Part shown: positions 1,152-13,026 of the stretch, one piece after another | Numbering within the stretch: the stretch's first letter is position 1 | Layout: each line of letters starts with the position of its first letter | DNA from: a virus | Lineage: Duplodnaviria; Heunggongvirae; Uroviricota; Caudoviricetes | IMG/VR virus record: IMGVR_UViG_2526164597_000012 | Length of the DNA: 38,876 bases | Direction: 5' to 3' (one strand) | Notes under the pieces: generated by a model | What the model was told of the DNA's origin: nothing | The model's input: only the letters and a program-made list of their open reading frames with translations | The model's database searches: none | Program-made: the position numbers and the translations under genes

Positions 1152-1724
1152 TTACATTTCAGGTTGCGTTATGACAGTCCCAACAGGGTGGTAGCGGTAG
1201 ATCGTTGACAGTCCAATATCATAGATAATTGCCAGCCGCTTTCTGTCATACCCTTTCTGGAGCAATCTTGCGATCTGCTCATGCTGCTCCTTCGTCAGTT
1301 TCGGGCGACGTCCTCCAACTCTCCCTTGTGCTCGCGCAGCAGCCAGTCCTGCCAGCGTGCGCTCAACTATCAGTTCACGCTCCATTTCTGCCAGTGCACC
1401 CATCATATGAAAAAAGAACCTTCCCATCGGAGTGCTGGTATCGATTGAATCCGTCAGACTGCGAAAATTGACACCTTTTGCGCGTAGCTCTTCTGTGAGA
1501 GCAATGAGGTGTTTCATTCTTCTACCCAACCGATCCAGCTTCCAGACCACCAATGTATCCCCTCTTTTAAGGCACTTTAAAGCGCGTTTCAGGCCTGGTC
1601 GTTCCGACTTGGTTCCGCTCATTTTGTCCTCAAAAATCTGTTCACATCCTGCGCACATTAATGCATTGCGTTGCAAATCTGTGTTTTGGTCATTTGTTGA
1701 CACACGTATGTAGCCAATCAGCAT
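1152..1724 (-). CDS. gin: Gin-family serine DNA invertase (190 aa)
   Basis: MLIGYIRVSTNDQNTDLQRNAL... with catalytic Ser region and C-terminal HTH; near-colinear with Mu Gin as recalled; RBS AAGGGAG 8 nt upstream of ATG at 1724; ORF-track entry 1152..1919 is an upstream extension. Confidence 0.9.
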   Translation of the reverse strand: MLIGYIRVSTNDQNTDLQRNALMCAGCEQIFEDKMSGTKSERPGLKRALKCLKRGDTLVVWKLDRLGRRMKHLIALTEELRAKGVNFRSLTDSIDTSTPMGRFFFHMMGALAEMERELIVERTLAGLAAARAQGRVGGRRPKLTKEQHEQIARLLQKGYDRKRLAIIYDIGLSTIYRYHPVGTVITQPEM

Positions 1725-1778
1725 TAAAAATACTCCCTTTTGAGTGGTTAAAGTACTGAGATAATGTGGGGAGGATTT

Positions 1779-1804
1779 GAGAGATAAACGTTGGTTTAGG
1801 GGAA
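1779..1804. other. Candidate gix-like crossover site A (..AAACG TT GGTTTAGGGGAA)
   Basis: Right half-site GGTTTAGGGGAA matches Mu gix half-site GGTTTACAGGAA (as recalled) at 10/12; sits at the 5' edge of the conserved cassette block, next to the gin promoter. Confidence 0.4.
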
Positions 1805-2299
1805 GGCTCGGCGCTGCCCGTTGGTGTGCCCGTTCCATGGCCCTCAGCCACACCGCCAACGGGGTGGCTGAAATGCAATGGTGCAGCATTTTCTTCTGAA
1901 ATGTATCCCAAACTGGCAAAAGCCTACCCCACCAATAAATTACCGGATTTACGGGGAGAATTTATTCGCGGTTGGGATGATGGGCGCGGGGTGGATGCTG
2001 GCCGCGCTTTGCTTAATTGGCAGCCACACACAATTTTGGATCATGCACACTATATGGAATTATGGACCGGGGATGGACTTGCCGCGGGAAGTACACGGGA
2101 AGGAGTAAACCCTGGAATACTGGCTACATACGGGGACGGGGGAATAGTTAAAACAGACGAACCCGGTTTAAATGTGCCTTCCTCACTACGAGCCGTTAGC
2201 TCTCGTAATGTAAAACGGTTTGGTGAAATTAGTGGAAATGTAGGTACAGAAACTCGCCCTCGCAACGTTGCATTTAATTACATCGTAAGAGCCGCATGA
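1781..2299 (+). CDS. Promoterless alternative tail-fibre C-terminal cassette A (Sv-like)
   Basis: Frame open from 1781; begins with the same ~65-aa block (NVGLGEGSALPVGVPVPWP..TPPTGWLKCNGAAFSSEMYP..RGEFIRGWDDGRG) found in the expressed tail fibre, then a unique segment, then conserved ETRPRNVAFNYIVRAA end. Confidence 0.7.
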   Translation, partial: EINVGLGEGSALPVGVPVPWPSATPPTGWLKCNGAAFSSEMYPKLAKAYPTNKLPDLRGEFIRGWDDGRGVDAGRALLNWQPHTILDHAHYMELWTGDGLAAGSTREGVNPGILATYGDGGIVKTDEPGLNVPSSLRAVSSRNVKRFGEISGNVGTETRPRNVAFNYIVRAA

Positions 2300-2768
2300 A
2301 AACGTTGGTTTGGGGGAAGGCTCTGCACTGCCCGTTGGTGTGCCTGTTCCATGGCCCTCAGCCACACCACCAACGGGCTGGCTGAAATGTAACGGTGCAG
2401 CATTTTCTTCTGAAATGTACCCAAATCTGGCAAAGGTTTACCCAACGTTAAAATTACCTGATTTACGCGGTGAGTTTATCCGTGGCTGGGATGATGGGCG
2501 CGGGGTGGATGCCGGAAGGGGCATCTTAAGCATGCAGGGGTGGTTAACAGGAAGTCATTATCATAATATTCGGTCATGGGATGCGTGGGATAACACGGTA
2601 CTGGTGCCAAATGACAAAAGAGGGGATAGTCTGTTGTCGACAGATAATGCCGTCCGGCAAGGTGCAATTAACGGTAGATTTACCAGTCAATACAGAACGG
2701 AATCCTCAGATGGGAATGAAAACCGCCCACGCAATATTGCCTTCAATTATATTGTGAGAACCGCATAA
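2289..2768 (+). CDS. Promoterless alternative tail-fibre C-terminal cassette B (Sv-like)
   Basis: Same conserved N-terminal block and C-terminal ENRPRNIAFNYIVRTA; unique middle; stop overlaps the tfa start (TAATGA). Confidence 0.7.
   Translation, partial: EPHENVGLGEGSALPVGVPVPWPSATPPTGWLKCNGAAFSSEMYPNLAKVYPTLKLPDLRGEFIRGWDDGRGVDAGRGILSMQGWLTGSHYHNIRSWDAWDNTVLVPNDKRGDSLLSTDNAVRQGAINGRFTSQYRTESSDGNENRPRNIAFNYIVRTA
2293..2318. other. Candidate gix-like crossover site B (..GAAAACG TT GGTTTGGGGGAA)
   Basis: Same half-site motif as site A at the equivalent position of cassette B. Confidence 0.4.
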
Positions 2769-3379
2769 TGAATAACGCGATATTAAATGATGACCTTATT
2801 GCCGTACAGGCAGGAAACATCGTCGTTTATAACTATGATGGTGAGACACGGGAATATATTTCCGAATCAACTGAATATCTTGCTGTGGGTGTTGGTATTC
2901 CGGCTAATTCCTGTTTAGATGCCCCAGGCGCACATAAATCTGGCTATGCTATTCGCCGTTCGGAGGATTTAAATTCATGGGAGTATGCGCCAGACCATCG
3001 TGGTGAAACCGTCTATAGCACTGACACGGGAAACACCGAAGAAATCACGGCGCTGGGTGACTACCCGAAAAATACAACCACTATCGCCCCGTTAACACCA
3101 TACGATAAATGGGATGGTGAAAAATGGGTGACAGATACTGAGGTACAACATCGTGCCGCAGTAGAAGCGGCAGAAACCAAGCGCCAGTCACTGGCTGATG
3201 CGGCAATGGATTCCATAAGTCTGATTCAGTTGAAGTTGCGGGCCGGGCGGAAGTTGACGCAGGCAGAAACCACCCGGCTTAATGCCGTGCTGGATTATAT
3301 AGACGCGCTGAACGCAATGGATATAAACATGGCACCAGATATCAACTTGCCGGAAATACCACTGGCATCAGCCAGTTGA
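2768..3379 (+). CDS. Tail fibre assembly protein (Tfa/U-like chaperone)
   Basis: 203 aa; immediately follows cassette B with overlapping stop/start; size, position and sequence style typical of Mu U / lambda Tfa family. Confidence 0.7.
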   Translation: MNNAILNDDLIAVQAGNIVVYNYDGETREYISESTEYLAVGVGIPANSCLDAPGAHKSGYAIRRSEDLNSWEYAPDHRGETVYSTDTGNTEEITALGDYPKNTTTIAPLTPYDKWDGEKWVTDTEVQHRAAVEAAETKRQSLADAAMDSISLIQLKLRAGRKLTQAETTRLNAVLDYIDALNAMDINMAPDINLPEIPLASAS

Positions 3380-3385
3380 ATATAA

Positions 3386-4687
3386 CTAAGCCGCCCTCAC
3401 GATATAGTTAAATGCAATATTGCGGGGGCGGGTTTCACTACCACCTGTGTTACCAATACTTCCTCGTGAATGAAGCGTTGGTGATGGAATCAAACTCCCT
3501 CCTGTATTTGTGGCATCAAGCCCCCTGCCTTGTGTATATGTTTTTTTGAAAATCGTAGCCAACTCCCATTCATCTTTTGTGTCATATCCATCGTTAGCTA
3601 CAACAATATGGCGATGTTTTTCCAACATCCCGTTTTGAATGCTCAATAAAGCGCGTGCCGCATCAATTCCTCGCCCATCATCCCAGCCACGGATAAATTC
3701 TCCGCGTAAATCCGGTAATTTATTGGTGGGGTAGGCTTTTGCCAGTTTGGGGTACATTTCAGAAGAAAATGCTGCACCGTTACATTTCAGCCAGCCCGTT
3801 GGTGGTGTTGCTAAGGGCCATGGAACAGGCACGCCAACGGGCAGTGCAGAACCTTCTCCTAAACCAAGGTAATTGAGGACTTCTTTTATACTGCCCATAG
3901 CGATAATAGCGCGACCAATAGCTGTAAGGGTTGTCAGTGCTGCGCGGTCTGCTCCGGTAAAATAAGGCAACCGATCTGCTGCAGTGGCAAGTCCTGCCAG
4001 AGCAGTGAGCGTGGCATCTGCCGGTTGTTTTCCGTTTGCCAGATCGTATGCAGCCTTGACCGCTTTCGGTGTGGCGGCCAGTATTTCAGACGTGCTGTTG
4101 ATGTCACTGCTCAATTGTACGGTGCCTTTTGCCGTCAGCGAGGCAGCAGGCACTCCCGTTATCTGACTCCACGGGTGAGTGTGGCTGACGGGCGCCTTGC
4201 CGGCTGCAAGGTCGTATGCAGCCTTGACCGCCTTCGGCGTGGCAGCCTCAGTTTCTGATTGACTGTCCGTGGCGCTGCTCAGTTGTACGGTGCCTTTTGC
4301 CGTCAGCGAGGCAGCAGGCACTCCCGTTATCTGACTCCACGGGTGAGTATGGCTGACGGGGGCCTTGCCGGCAGCCAGGTCATATGCAGCCTTGACGGCC
4401 TTTGGTGTGGCGGCCAGCGTTTCAGAGGTGCTGTTGGTGGCACTGCTCAGTTGGGTGAACCCCTTAGCTGTCAGTGTCGCGTCCGGGTGGTTACGGGAAC
4501 GTACGTGTTCAGCCAGTGACTGTGCGGCTTCCTCCGTTTTTTTCTTCAGCCATTTCGTCCTGTTTGCCAGTTGCCGGGGGGCTCGATTTGATATCCCGTC
4601 TGCACCACCCAGAACCGGATCTGATGTCTCCAGTTGATAGATATTTTCTTCCCACTTTTCTGTTTCATTCAGGTTTCCCATAATCAA
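3386..4687 (-). CDS. Tail fibre protein (S-like): constant N-terminal part + currently joined variable C-terminal cassette C
   Basis: 433 aa; internal tandem fibre repeats; C-terminal ~160 aa start with the conserved cassette block (LGLGEGSALPVGVPVPWP...) and end ETRPRNIAFNYIVRAA. Confidence 0.85.
   Translation of the reverse strand: MIMGNLNETEKWEENIYQLETSDPVLGGADGISNRAPRQLANRTKWLKKKTEEAAQSLAEHVRSRNHPDATLTAKGFTQLSSATNSTSETLAATPKAVKAAYDLAAGKAPVSHTHPWSQITGVPAASLTAKGTVQLSSATDSQSETEAATPKAVKAAYDLAAGKAPVSHTHPWSQITGVPAASLTAKGTVQLSSDINSTSEILAATPKAVKAAYDLANGKQPADATLTALAGLATAADRLPYFTGADRAALTTLTAIGRAIIAMGSIKEVLNYLGLGEGSALPVGVPVPWPLATPPTGWLKCNGAAFSSEMYPKLAKAYPTNKLPDLRGEFIRGWDDGRGIDAARALLSIQNGMLEKHRHIVVANDGYDTKDEWELATIFKKTYTQGRGLDATNTGGSLIPSPTLHSRGSIGNTGGSETRPRNIAFNYIVRAA
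3854..3879. other. Candidate gix-like crossover site C inside the tail-fibre gene (inverted relative to sites A and B)
   Basis: Minus-strand ..AATTACC TT GGTTTAGGAGAA at the constant/variable boundary (codons ~273-279). Confidence 0.4.
3960..4480. repeat. Tandem in-frame repeats (~168 bp / 56 aa, ~2.6 copies) within the tail-fibre gene
   Basis: Protein repeats LTAKG..QLSS..SE..AATPKAVKAAYDLA.GK.PVSHTHPWSQITGVPAAS; DNA copies near 4044, 4212, 4381; causes the repeated plus-strand shadow ORFs 4025..4258 and 4259..4519. Confidence 0.75.
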
Positions 4688-8701: not shown

Positions 8702-9582
8702 ACACTCCTCGTCAGTATTCTGGCGGCCATTGCACTTAATCCCGGAGACATGCGGTTGAATGCTGTGCCGGCGGCGTTAAGCTGCCCGGAAACGGTATCC
8801 AGAGCACCTGCAATATTTCTTTTGTCCACACCACTCAGCGCAGACTGTGCCTGCTGTACATACGTGGCTGCTTCGCTGGCTGTTCTGGCCAGACTGATGG
8901 CATCGGGCATGGATTCAGAGAGTGCGTTAAACGCCGGAACACTTTTCCCCAGAGCCCCGGAGATATTACCCAGTCCGCTCATCAGCCCCGGCACACGGGT
9001 CAGTGCGACAACGGGGTTATCCTTCATTTTCTGTGTCACCCGAACGGCGCTGATAGTGGTCTGGAGTACAGACTGCGCCTGTTTCGCATAGTTGACGCCG
9101 TTGCGGATGAACTGCGCCACCCCTGAAGGTGAAGGTATGGCACCGGAGACCGCCCCGACACCCGGGAGCTTCGTGCGTATTGCCGGTGGTTGCAGAGGAT
9201 TTTTCGGGTCACCGGTGTATTCCCGGAGAGACACGGTGGCACTGACAGCCAGCACGTTGCCGGTACTGTCAGTCTGCTCGCTGGTTGCAGTCACATCGGT
9301 AATCACGAACCAGCCGCGATAGTCACCGTTGCCGAAGACCAGCGCCAGTGCCTGATGGGCTTTCATGGCTGTTCGCAGTCTCGCCAGCTCCACATCGGGT
9401 ACACAATAATGCTGATGGAAAACCAGAGTTATCTGGATTTCGTCCAGCCTGTCGCCGACGAACTGCAGGCCAGGCTTACCCCCGATGCGGGCATGCTCCG
9501 CATAATCGACGCCGAACGTGGCCTCGAAGCCGTCCCAGTAGGTAATCAGCTCAAACTCAATATCACCCAGTACGGCAAACAT
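8698..9582 (-). CDS. Tail/DNA circularisation protein (Mu gp43/P-like)
   Basis: 294 aa immediately downstream of tape measure, start overlapping TMP stop. Confidence 0.6.
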   Translation of the reverse strand: MFAVLGDIEFELITYWDGFEATFGVDYAEHARIGGKPGLQFVGDRLDEIQITLVFHQHYCVPDVELARLRTAMKAHQALALVFGNGDYRGWFVITDVTATSEQTDSTGNVLAVSATVSLREYTGDPKNPLQPPAIRTKLPGVGAVSGAIPSPSGVAQFIRNGVNYAKQAQSVLQTTISAVRVTQKMKDNPVVALTRVPGLMSGLGNISGALGKSVPAFNALSESMPDAISLARTASEAATYVQQAQSALSGVDKRNIAGALDTVSGQLNAAGTAFNRMSPGLSAMAARILTRSV

Positions 9583-12533
9583 CAGCGGTACTCCTTACGT
9601 TGTTTCTGAGCCAGCAGACGCTCCAGCATTTTTTCCAGCTCATGCAGACTCATATTCAGGGCACCAGTCAGTCCTGCAGGCGCTGTGGTTTCCCTGCCAT
9701 TGAGGAAAAACTGAGGATTAAAGCTGACCTGGATACCACCAGACGTTCCACCGCCGGTTGCAGCTGCACCACGGCCTGAATATCCGGCAGCCAGGATTTC
9801 AGGCGAGGGGATACGGGGAACATCCGGTGTCATCTCATTTGCCAGACGTTGCCCTGGTAAAATCGATGCCCGGGTGGAGAGCGGAATAGCGGGCATGGAA
9901 GACAAACTATTGATTACGGCTCCGATCGCATTTTTAGCAGACGACATAAACCCATTGATATCGGGCAACGGCATACTGAAGCGAACACCTGAAGTGTTAT
10001 CCCGTATTTCTGGCCCCTGGATGCTCACGGGCATTCTGGGGAGCAGTTCACTGGCCATTCGCTGCCCGGCCAGAGCTGCAAGCGGAGTGGTCCGCTGCAG
10101 GCCAATGGCGGCCCCCTGCGCGATATTGTCACCAAAGCCCATAAACACGCGGCTCGGCGAATGAATGCCCAGCTTTTCGCTGAACCAGCCACTGATGCTG
10201 TCACCCATTCCGGTTACACTGGATTTGAGCGACTCCCATTTGTTTTTGATACCGTTAATCAGACCATCGACAAGATGGCCACCGAAGTCGGTAAACTTTG
10301 CCGGCAGATCAACACCAAGATATTTCAGCGCAGCTGCAAAGGCTTTATAGAGCAGACCTGCCGGCGACCAGTTAATCAGCAGCTTACCAGTTCCCGCGAT
10401 ACCGCCGTTAAAGGCTTCCTGAATGTCAGCCCAGCACTGTTTAAACCAGCTACTGATGCTGTCACCCATTCCGGTTACACTGGATTTGAGCGACCCCCAT
10501 TTGTTTTTGATACCGTTAATCAGACCGTCGATAAGATGGCCACCGAAGTCGGTGAACTTTGCCGGCAGAGCAACGCCGAAATATTTCAGCGCAGCCGCAA
10601 AGGCTTTATAGAGCAGGCCTGCCGGCGACCAGTTAATCAGTAACTTACCAATTCCCACAATGCCGCCGTTAAAGGCTTCCTGAATGTCTGCCCAGCGCTG
10701 TTTAAACCAGCCACTGACTGCCCCCCAGTTGCGGTAGATAAGGTAAGCTGCTGCCGCGACAGCGGTGATAACGAGACCGATGGGATTCATCATCAGCGCA
10801 CGTCCAATCCAGAGAACAGCACGTCCGGCGAGCATAATTCCGCGAACCAGCCCCCCGGAGAGCACGCCACTCAGTGTTCTGGCTCCTCTGGCGACGGCGC
10901 TAAATCCGGTCACCAGCCAGCGGAGCTTACCGCCTTGCCCCAGTGCGAGCGACAGACGAAGCCAGTTGGCCCGAAGTAAAACAGCATTTTTCCAGACACT
11001 TACAAAGGGGGAAATAAGGAGATTCAGCCCCAGTTTGAGACCAACAGTCGCTATCTTAATCGCAAGGAGCGCACTGATGAGCTTAAAAGCCCCACTGACA
11101 AATTGCGGGTGAGTCGCTACCCAGTGTTTTGCCCCCTGAATGAGTGGAAGCAGTTCCTGAGTCAAAGAAATAAAAGATGGAGCTAATTGATCGCCCAGCG
11201 TAATTGCCAGATCGCGACTGCTGACCATAAGTGTTTTAGTGGCTTCAAGGGGAGATTTCAGCCGCTGATCATAAGCACTGGCAAGCAAATCGTTATCCGC
11301 AGCCCTGAGAGCACCGGCACGGATCTCTCGATATCTGTCCATGTTGGCCAGCATCGGGCGGATAAATGCCATGACCTGCATATCCGCGAACATATCGCCC
11401 AGACCAAAGTTTTTCGCCAGAGCCTGAAGTGCCTCATCTCTTGCCGTATCATTCTTTATTTTCATGGCTGATTTGAAGCCGGCCAGCGCTTCGGGGCTTT
11501 TGGCATTGAGGTAACGTTCTATAACACTCAACATCCCTTCAATCGGAGAGATCCCCGCAGCTTTATAACTCGCAATAGATCCCTGCAAATCAATACCCAG
11601 ATCAGCAAACTGTTTCTGAGTATCGCGGGCAAAAATTTTGGTAAGAAAGTTTTTAAAATTATTGGCTGCTTCGTCGGTGGAACCTGCACCGATTTTTGCT
11701 ATCTGGAGACTGGCCCCTATTTCAGCAACAGCCTCTTTTCCACTGGCAATACCCGCCATCATTGGGGCCAGGGACTGCATCCACTTGACCTGATCCGGGA
11801 TTTCAAATGACCCCTGGTCACCGGCATAAGCCATAATATTCTGAACGGCACCAAAATCTCTGGCCGCACCTTTCAGGGAGTTTTGCCAGACTGCGGCCAC
11901 TTTTGCCCAGTCCTGAGCAGACGTGCGTGTTGCCGTTGCCGCGCGGGCAATATCCGGCATCAGAAAACCGATATCTGACACATTATCAATATTGTCGCTG
12001 ATGAGTGAACCCACCGCCTCCTGCAGCTCATCCTGATACTGATTGTATTTAAGCGCCCAGCCTTTTATCTGTCCGGCAAGTGCATCCCGCGTTTTATTGT
12101 CATATTTTGCGGTGATCGACATATCAATCATTTTGTCCTGAAAAGACATGGACTGCTGAACGGCAGGGGAAACCGTATGATAAACAGTCTGTGCCATGCC
12201 ATACGCTTCAATCCCCTGACCATACAGCGCCATGCGGTTAGCTTTCAGCGCATCACTGGTAGCGGATGCCGCTGACAGACGGCGCTGCTGGCGCTCAATT
12301 TGCTCCATGGTGCGGCTTACCCGCAGCAGCTCGCTGTTGAGATGCTGCATCCGGGAAGAACCCAGTTGACCATAACGTTCTGTTGCACGGGTTAAAGCGT
12401 TCTGACGTTCCTGCAGGCGGCGTGAGGTATCGCTCAGGGAATCAAGCGCACGGCGGGTACCGCTCATTGCAGAACGGAATGTGCTACCAATCATCCCGCC
12501 GATAACAACGCCGACTGAAAACTGTCCCGACAT
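9582..12533 (-). CDS. Tail tape measure protein
   Basis: 983 aa, Ala/Gly/Leu-rich with hydrophobic stretches, downstream of frameshifted chaperone; RBS CCGGAGG. Confidence 0.85.
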   Translation of the reverse strand: MSGQFSVGVVIGGMIGSTFRSAMSGTRRALDSLSDTSRRLQERQNALTRATERYGQLGSSRMQHLNSELLRVSRTMEQIERQQRRLSAASATSDALKANRMALYGQGIEAYGMAQTVYHTVSPAVQQSMSFQDKMIDMSITAKYDNKTRDALAGQIKGWALKYNQYQDELQEAVGSLISDNIDNVSDIGFLMPDIARAATATRTSAQDWAKVAAVWQNSLKGAARDFGAVQNIMAYAGDQGSFEIPDQVKWMQSLAPMMAGIASGKEAVAEIGASLQIAKIGAGSTDEAANNFKNFLTKIFARDTQKQFADLGIDLQGSIASYKAAGISPIEGMLSVIERYLNAKSPEALAGFKSAMKIKNDTARDEALQALAKNFGLGDMFADMQVMAFIRPMLANMDRYREIRAGALRAADNDLLASAYDQRLKSPLEATKTLMVSSRDLAITLGDQLAPSFISLTQELLPLIQGAKHWVATHPQFVSGAFKLISALLAIKIATVGLKLGLNLLISPFVSVWKNAVLLRANWLRLSLALGQGGKLRWLVTGFSAVARGARTLSGVLSGGLVRGIMLAGRAVLWIGRALMMNPIGLVITAVAAAAYLIYRNWGAVSGWFKQRWADIQEAFNGGIVGIGKLLINWSPAGLLYKAFAAALKYFGVALPAKFTDFGGHLIDGLINGIKNKWGSLKSSVTGMGDSISSWFKQCWADIQEAFNGGIAGTGKLLINWSPAGLLYKAFAAALKYLGVDLPAKFTDFGGHLVDGLINGIKNKWESLKSSVTGMGDSISGWFSEKLGIHSPSRVFMGFGDNIAQGAAIGLQRTTPLAALAGQRMASELLPRMPVSIQGPEIRDNTSGVRFSMPLPDINGFMSSAKNAIGAVINSLSSMPAIPLSTRASILPGQRLANEMTPDVPRIPSPEILAAGYSGRGAAATGGGTSGGIQVSFNPQFFLNGRETTAPAGLTGALNMSLHELEKMLERLLAQKQRKEYR
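10165..10720. repeat. Tandem in-frame duplication (2 x 258 bp, plus the first ~30 bp of a third unit) inside the tape-measure gene
   Basis: Two near-identical 86-aa units (SWFKQ.WADIQEAFNGGI.G.GKLLINWSPAGLLYKAFAAALKY.GV.LPAKFTDFGGHL.DGLINGIKNKW.SLKSSVTGMGDSIS); mirrored by plus-strand shadow ORFs 10165..10350 and 10423..10611. Confidence 0.85.
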
Positions 12534-12608: not shown

Positions 12609-12866
12609 CTATGATTTGTCGCCGTACTCGCTTTTTATTTGCTCTTCAGCCTGCTCCAGCCACATCTCCAGATCGTCAGTATCGAGGGCATCAATCTCCC
12701 CCGGCTGAAACCGGAACCATCTCGCCAGCAGCCCCTGCGCCTGCGTCAGCGCCCTGGTTGCTCTCACCCATCCCCGTGATGAGCTGAAATCGTTTCTGTA
12801 ACTGCAGGTAATCAGCCAGATCCATATTGTCGAGATCTTCCGGGAGAAGACCAGTACTGCGGGCAA
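12609..12866 (-). CDS. Frameshift-extension frame of tail assembly chaperone (GT-like product)
   Basis: Overlaps the 3' part of 12691..13026 in the +1 frame and extends 84 nt beyond its stop; a G-run (CCGGGGGAGATTGA) sits at the end of the upstream frame. Confidence 0.55.
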   Translation of the reverse strand: MPAVLVFSRKISTIWIWLITCSYRNDFSSSRGWVRATRALTQAQGLLARWFRFQPGEIDALDTDDLEMWLEQAEEQIKSEYGDKS

Positions 12867-13026
12867 TCAGCGGTTCGTCCCAGTCTGCCGGGTTTTTGCT
12901 GATTTTGCGCACCTGCTTCAGGTCTTTTACCGTCAGGCGTTTCAGTTCAACCAGCTCAATTCTGGTGCCTGCAGCAGTGGTGAAGGGATAAGACAATTTA
13001 AAAGTATCGGATGGGGTCTGTGACAT
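12691..13026 (-). CDS. Tail assembly chaperone (G-like), upstream frame
   Basis: 111 aa directly upstream of tape measure; RBS CAGGAG; paired with an overlapping frame as in conserved tail-chaperone frameshift genes. Confidence 0.7.
   Translation of the reverse strand: MSQTPSDTFKLSYPFTTAAGTRIELVELKRLTVKDLKQVRKISKNPADWDEPLIARSTGLLPEDLDNMDLADYLQLQKRFQLITGMGESNQGADAGAGAAGEMVPVSAGGD

Follow-up and report, generated by a model that had tools for sequence, protein, structure and literature searches.

A tandemly duplicated 87-residue module with natural copy-number variants in the tail tape-measure gene of a Mu-like Escherichia coli prophage

The stretch of DNA analyzed here (the window) comprises the 38,876 nucleotides (nt) of IMG/VR virus record IMGVR_UViG_2526164597_000012 (Caudoviricetes), and positions are counted from its first letter. 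Its minus strand carries a gene for a tail tape-measure protein (Table 1), and it is within this gene that the repeats described below are found. The identity of the gene had been proposed from the letters of the DNA alone (referred to here as the original prediction), and it was borne out by the PhageMin_Tail domain (PF10145; 74 bits at residues 159-340 of the 983-amino-acid [aa] protein, against a cutoff of 33.2; E = 2e-20), by a match to PHROG 28 ("tail length tape measure protein"; E = 8e-135) and by the order of genes in the tail module. A dozen further PHROGs with the same annotation also matched the protein. In genomes 99.9% identical to the window, the gene is annotated as "phage tail tape measure protein" and is located between a tail assembly chaperone and a gpU-like gene. 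One such annotated genome has the order sheath, tube, tail assembly protein (GpE family), tape measure, tail protein (gpU-like), X, D, V, W, J, I and tail fibre. Upstream of these are Mu-type head genes (DUF935 portal-like, head morphogenesis and virion morphogenesis), and the far end of the same genome holds a gene annotated as "integrase catalytic domain-containing protein" that we read as the transposase. Among phage records, the nearest is PhiKM, which is assigned to Bcepmuvirus. The Mu-type head genes, the transposase so read and the classification of PhiKM show that the element is a Mu-like (BcepMu-type, transposable) prophage of Escherichia coli with a P2-type contractile tail.

Analysis of the tape-measure gene with Tandem Repeats Finder identified one array (10183-10717; period 261, 2.0 copies, 92% matches, no indels, score 937), and a second repeat search returned two 261-nt copies with 93% identity. 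Between the two units, A and B, 19 of 261 nt and 8 of 87 residues differ, and the reading frame is kept. The original prediction had called an in-frame tandem duplication of 258 base pairs (bp) or 86 aa; the duplication and its frame were confirmed, but the unit is one codon larger, 261 bp or 87 aa. Its placement in the C-terminal third of the protein is roughly and not strictly correct, as the array extends from 62 to 80% of the protein length. The "beginning of a third" unit that had also been described was found to be merely a 13-nt boundary repeat encoding SGWF. On the plus strand this 13-mer reads AACCAGCCACTGA at 10183-10195 and 10705-10717, and it occurs with one mismatch at the A/B junction (10444-10456). 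Beyond the boundary repeats, neither the upstream nor the downstream sequence aligns with the unit.

Table 1. Features of the tape-measure region, numbered from the first letter of the window.
Feature	Position	Strand	Description
Tail tape-measure protein gene	9582..12533	minus	983 aa; longest open reading frame (ORF) of the region; identified by PF10145, PHROG 28 and gene order
Second optional length module	9855..10067	minus	213 nt (71 aa), residues 823-893; lies between two copies of the motif GQR[ML]A.E..P
Boundary repeat, 3′ edge of array	10183..10195	minus	Same 13-mer as at the 5′ edge; closes unit B
Repeat unit B	10188..10448	minus	87 aa, residues 696-782
Repeat unit A	10449..10709	minus	87 aa, residues 609-695; 185 bits against the unit hidden Markov model
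Boundary repeat, 5′ edge of array	10705..10717	minus	13 nt; coding strand TCAGTGGCTGGTT, residues SGWF; precedes unit A
Hydrophobic, membrane-helix-like region	10719..11096	minus	Residues about 478-605, strongest at 478-508 and 579-600 (Kyte-Doolittle scan); directly upstream of the array
Tail assembly chaperone pair (gpE / E+E′-like overlapping ORFs)	12609..13026	minus	ORFs 12609-12866 and 12691-13026; upstream of the tape-measure gene; "phage tail assembly protein" and "GpE family phage tail protein" are the annotations at homologous positions

Tape-measure repeats of 11 or 18 aa marked by aromatic residues have been described (PMC5099701). When the Trp/Phe pattern of the 87-aa unit was autocorrelated, lags 11 and 18 gave z = 1.0-1.9 and lag 29 gave z <= 0.4, none of which is significant, and the lack of a significant 11-, 18- or 29-residue aromatic periodicity sets the unit outside the 11-residue repeat class. 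A 29-residue sub-period had been considered, as 87 is three times 29 and a partial repeat of 29 aa precedes the unit in Xenorhabdus-type relatives. It was discarded; the autocorrelation gave it no support, and other indels in the family measure 22, 67 and 71 aa. The plus strand of the repeat also contains a 160-aa antisense ORF (10161-10643) that grows to 359 aa in three-unit alleles. This ORF is a by-product of a repeated, stop-free antisense frame, and nothing indicates that it is a gene.

The tape-measure gene was matched in 636 of 5426 complete E. coli genomes. Unit number was taken from the span between the two flanks, using a BLAST query of the flanks only, in 60 of the 636 records, sampled at even intervals. 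Two units (983 aa), including the type found in the sequence type 131 strain EC958, were present in 40 of the 60 records, and three units (1070 aa) were present in 12. A single unit was seen in two close relatives of the window (896 aa) and in four records of a distant, 821-aa type, four units (1157 aa) were found once, in strain LR-31, and the remaining record was partial. A sample drawn with the whole gene as query gave unit-class proportions consistent with these. Individual alleles proved intact at each length: EcPF7 has a 2691-bp gene with one unit (896 aa), A1.S1.65 and B20123 have uninterrupted 3213-bp ORFs with three units (1070 aa), and LR-31 has a 3474-bp gene (1157 aa) whose four units are 6-15 nt apart in pairwise comparison. 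The same length classes were found in a large protein collection, where 91 of the 120 best cluster representatives were full length (26 with one unit, 47 with two and 18 with three). All 91 are complete tape-measure proteins with the expected start and end.

All 31 sampled records equal to the EC958 row in identity and bit score have two units, and seven three-unit alleles and the four-unit allele are among the rows of that identity band that differ slightly. Judging from these alignments, changes in copy number seem to be rare on clonal time scales and common over the history of the family. Some rows of the BLAST output covered only query positions 602-2952 and had been taken for alleles with an alternative C-terminus; these were three-unit alleles that had been split when hits were joined. 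In RefSeq, two three-unit alleles (NZ_CP146591.1, 900-4112; NZ_CP142930.1, 639-3851) are entered by the Prokaryotic Genome Annotation Pipeline (PGAP) as pseudogenes or split, "incomplete" coding sequences (CDSs), and each is one intact 1070-aa ORF. Apparently the extra repeat defeats the protein-alignment-based annotation of PGAP in the two three-unit genes inspected.

The repeat breaks or inflates short-read assemblies, and the duplication and its copy-number variants could in principle be mis-resolved repeats. Two records show what such errors look like. The GenBank record of Escherichia phage PhiKM (PQ738613.1) has a gap of 100 Ns at 3853-3952, within the array, with the tape-measure gene divided into two CDSs; an IMG/VR contig (IMGVR_UViG_2740892433_000005, 2425-4362) has about 7.4 units, seven of them protein-identical, with an N in the middle. 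We regard the seven- to eight-unit array of this contig as a probable scaffolding artefact, given its protein-identical units and the N. For the window and the E. coli series, however, an artefact is exceedingly improbable. Units A and B differ at 19 positions, hundreds of complete E. coli genomes, assembled independently, show the same A- and B-specific states, the three- and four-unit alleles are composed of non-identical units in intact ORFs, and three units occurred in a fifth (12/60) of the sampled genomes. Three loci in draft assemblies of Arthrobacter sp. GMC3 and Y81 also matched; these are short, low-coverage contigs 99-100% identical to the E. coli prophage tape-measure gene, and they are almost certainly E. 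coli contamination.

The 19 sites that distinguish A from B were used to trace how the alleles are related. The single unit of EcPF7 matches A over nt 1-93 and B over nt 114-261, and comparison with three outgroups shows that it has derived states of both units. Over the 991 nt compared, its flanks do not differ from those of the window (0/391 differences upstream and 0/600 downstream). The A/B chimera and the identical flanks show the allele to be a recent deletion, by crossing-over of A with B in a window-like two-unit allele. The middle unit of three-unit alleles has the opposite arrangement, with B states over nt 1-59 and A states over nt 67-261, as predicted for unequal crossing-over between misaligned two-unit arrays, and its breakpoint differs from that of the EcPF7 deletion. 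In EC958, unit 1 contains a B-type patch at nt 21-69, which indicates gene conversion. Among the protein clusters, 11 distinct A/B mosaics were found in one-unit alleles and 14 in three-unit alleles. Differing breakpoints and many mosaics imply that the events are recurrent and independent, and indicate a combination of unequal crossing-over and gene conversion. The variability in copy number by recombination that the original prediction had suspected is thus seen in intact alleles of one, two, three and four units that include A/B chimeric units.

EC958 also differs from the window next to the array. In the hydrophobic region directly upstream (10710-11100) 59 of 391 nt (15%) are divergent, compared with 1 of 600 nt downstream (9582-10187), a pattern that indicates a mosaic junction at the start of the repeat.

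One genome per species was scanned for the tape-measure family, which was found in Intestinirhabdus, Trabulsiella, Pseudocitrobacter, Pantoea, Mixta, Buttiauxella, Limnobaculum, Xenorhabdus, Brenneria, Dickeya, Apirhabdus and others. When the unit profile was run on 20 tape-measure ORFs from Enterobacterales genera other than Escherichia, exactly one full unit was detected in each of the 20. One unit is also present in the 821-825 aa alleles of some E. coli and in the record of Klebsiella phage KP12. From this distribution, a single unit is the original, conserved state and the duplication is derived in one lineage of E. coli prophages. The unit of single-unit relatives is already flanked by a short direct repeat encoding S-x-W-F, and in the lineage of the window this repeat is identical at 13 of 13 nt. 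Relatives with a single unit, as assumed in the original prediction, therefore do exist, and they are of two kinds: the distant forms are ancestral, and the close 896-aa alleles are secondary deletions from the two-unit form. At the amino acid level the outgroup unit looks like A in its first half and like B in its second, which had suggested that the close one-unit allele was ancestral, or that a central segment made of the second part of A and the first part of B had been imported. Both ideas were dropped after nucleotide changes were polarized against three outgroups; the derived changes are scattered along the whole of A and B, and the EcPF7 unit has derived states of both.

The KP12 record itself (OM835952.1, "Klebsiella phage KP12 clone KP12_2", labelled Vequintavirinae) is a 35-kb "partial sequence" with a P2-type tail module and an 821-aa, single-unit tape measure. 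Such content is ill-suited to a lytic phage of the Vequintavirinae, and the record may represent a co-purified prophage or a host-derived contig.

Synonymous divergence (dS) between A and B is 0.21, compared with 0.44-0.55 between either unit and outgroup units, so the duplication occurred after the split from the single-unit lineages but is not recent. With gene conversion acting on the array, the A-B divergence gives a minimum age only. The ratio of non-synonymous to synonymous divergence (dN/dS) between the units is 0.19, so that both copies are constrained by purifying selection. These values bear on the possibility that the variation is neutral churn in domesticated or defective prophages, driven by RecA-mediated recombination of the host and with no phenotype, as particles would not be made. 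Every variant was indeed seen as a chromosomal prophage, and some neighbouring genes are pseudogenes in some strains (in EcPF7, for instance, the chaperone gene is interrupted by a stop codon and an ORF is frameshifted). This explanation is nevertheless very unlikely in our view, as it sits poorly with the dN/dS of 0.19, with the completeness of the tape-measure protein in 91/91 full-length cluster representatives, with a 24.6-kb block of late genes shared at 99.7% identity with the prophage of another strain, and with the deposition of PhiKM as a phage from a uropathogenic E. coli host.

Taken as a whole, the observations are probably best explained by an in-frame tandem duplication of an 87-residue tape-measure module that recombines between one and four units and is predicted to set tail length. 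The ancestral gene had one unit, with the short direct repeat for S-x-W-F at its two ends. The most likely route to the two-unit form is slippage during replication, or illegitimate recombination, between these boundary repeats (13/13 nt). Since then, homologous unequal crossing-over and gene conversion have acted on the two 93%-identical units, and the array contracts and expands, from one to four units, among otherwise near-identical prophages, as the chimeric units attest. A tube ring rises by about 4 nm. At about 0.15 nm per aa, each 87-aa unit would add about 13 nm to the tail, close to three tube/sheath rings, and the range of tail lengths predicted for the series of 896, 983, 1070 and 1157 aa is about 40 nm.

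Katsura and Hendrix reportedly engineered in-frame deletions and duplications in gpH of phage lambda and found that tail length follows protein length. For the tape-measure protein of phage TP901-1, graded in-frame deletions shortened the tail; with 347 aa removed, its length fell from 118 to 65 nm, a slope of about 0.15 nm per residue (PMC5099701). The relation between tape-measure length and tail length has been reported for siphovirus and myovirus morphotypes (PMC13585406). Tape-measure length sets tail length in every tailed phage tested, and by analogy the tails of prophages with one to four units are predicted to differ by about 13 nm per unit. The 10-15 nm that the original prediction had allowed for the duplication agrees with the slopes from these other phages, and for the phage of the window it would hold by extrapolation.

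Several points weigh against this explanation. The tail-length step is drawn from other phages and from none of the alleles of this one, and the duplication by way of the 13-nt boundary repeat is reconstructed from present-day sequence. Virion production by this prophage is putative, and the only close relative labelled as a phage, PhiKM, is a partial record with its gap inside the repeat. Structural evidence for the array region is weak: a single-sequence AlphaFold2 model of residues 481-842 is nearly all helix, yet its mean pLDDT (predicted local distance difference test score) of 45.7 is low, too low for a fold search to be based on it, and a sequence search of the PDB found no usable solved homolog (best match 9m8o_M, Gp14; E = 0.19). 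Lastly, the units directly follow hydrophobic segments, and the region could belong to an ejected, channel-forming part of the protein and not to the ruler.

If that were the case, the array would be real and variable but would lie outside the length-determining part of the protein, forming, together with the hydrophobic helices, part of an ejected conduit that carries DNA across the envelope. Copy number would then alter the reach or other properties of the conduit, or nothing at all, and tail length would be constant. In agreement with such a role, unit A begins 9 residues after the last hydrophobic segment (residues 579-600), and the last 40 aa of the unit correspond to a motif that is conserved close to the C-terminus in many unrelated tape-measure PHROG families, which hints at a specific function and not at a pure spacer. 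Terminal repeats of the TP901-1 protein are also known to affect infection efficiency (PMC5099701). However, the TP901-1 tail became shorter in proportion to the size of the deletion, whether this lay in the repeat region or in a hydrophobic region (PMC5099701), and four length classes, all intact and under purifying selection, suit a tolerant, spacer-like role. On balance, we consider a conduit without effect on tail length to be unlikely, and a module that contributes to the ruler remains the preferred interpretation.

A more far-reaching version of the ruler interpretation, which we think quite unlikely, is that the series of one to four units is a selected, quantized polymorphism of tail length in which each 87-aa unit adds a whole number (about three) of tube/sheath rings. 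If so, recurrent recombination would let a widespread prophage family associated with extraintestinal pathogenic E. coli switch between discrete tail lengths, for example to match capsule, O-antigen or envelope thickness, and the near-isogenic natural alleles would allow the ruler of a contractile tail to be calibrated directly in residues per ring.

Internal duplication and loss in tape-measure genes is already known, and the addition made here is a natural series of one to four units in near-isogenic, contractile-tail E. coli prophages. Natural tandem repeats in tape-measure genes evolve by duplication and loss of units (Belcaid et al., 2011; PMC3271669). The array of the window resembles those repeats in that its units are in-frame and in tandem, their number varies among related phages, and their history can be traced from paralogous substitutions. 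It differs from them in unit length (87 aa as opposed to 11 aa), in the lack of significant 11-, 18- and 29-residue Trp/Phe periodicity, in its range of one to four copies, and in varying within one bacterial species among near-identical prophages. The lambda gpH and TP901-1 constructs share with it the gain or loss of an in-frame segment that leaves a functional protein, at about 0.15 nm of tail per residue. Those, however, are laboratory constructs in non-contractile siphoviruses, whereas the present series is natural, belongs to a contractile, P2-type tail module and is known from sequence. With the tape-measure proteins of the P2 gpT / Mu gp42 type (PF10145), the protein of the window has in common the N-terminal domain family, the neighbourhood (chaperone E/E′, then T, U, X and D) and the size class of the single-unit relatives (821-829 aa), but it is 160 aa longer, owing to the extra 87-aa unit and a 71-aa optional module. 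No specific report on this prophage, on PhiKM or on a copy-number polymorphism of an E. coli tape-measure gene emerged from literature searches. Evidence on tape measures has come mostly from engineered siphovirus mutants; the natural series of 896, 983, 1070 and 1157 aa could provide nanometers and rings per residue in a myovirus, and could show whether tail length affects host range.

The 87-aa unit is not the only length module in this family. In alignments, the 71-aa module downstream of the array (Table 1) is missing in relatives of 821-825 aa (those in E. coli and the KP12 record), measures 67-71 aa in Pseudocitrobacter and Buttiauxella, and is doubled in one IMG/VR locus (L093). A 961-aa allele (NZ_CP069528.1; gene at 1501-4386) has lost 66 nt in frame, corresponding to the 22 aa TGFSAVARGARTLSGVLSGGLV of the hydrophobic region (about 10803-10868 of the window), and short direct repeats, CTGGT(G/T), flank the deletion. 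A protein cluster of 51 members (P0088) is represented by another 961-aa sequence. Larger in-frame tandem duplications were found in two IMG/VR records, of 188 aa with identical copies in IMGVR_UViG_3300029163_000003 and of 235 aa with diverged copies in IMGVR_UViG_2568526497_000007. Both span the hydrophobic helices, the 87-aa unit and an LGIHSPSRVF motif, and both occur in an otherwise single-unit branch; they are independent of the duplication in the window.

Outside the tape-measure region, the window contains long inverted repeats between positions 1150 and 4690 (1788-2010 and 2302-2536 versus 3636-3870; 223-235 nt, 86-89% complementary). They adjoin an ORF at 1152-1919, part of which matches a gene annotated as "recombinase family protein" in one of the compared loci (L002), and tail-fibre and fibre-assembly ORFs lie between them in opposite orientations. 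This arrangement looks like an invertible tail-fibre cassette system of the Mu G-segment type.

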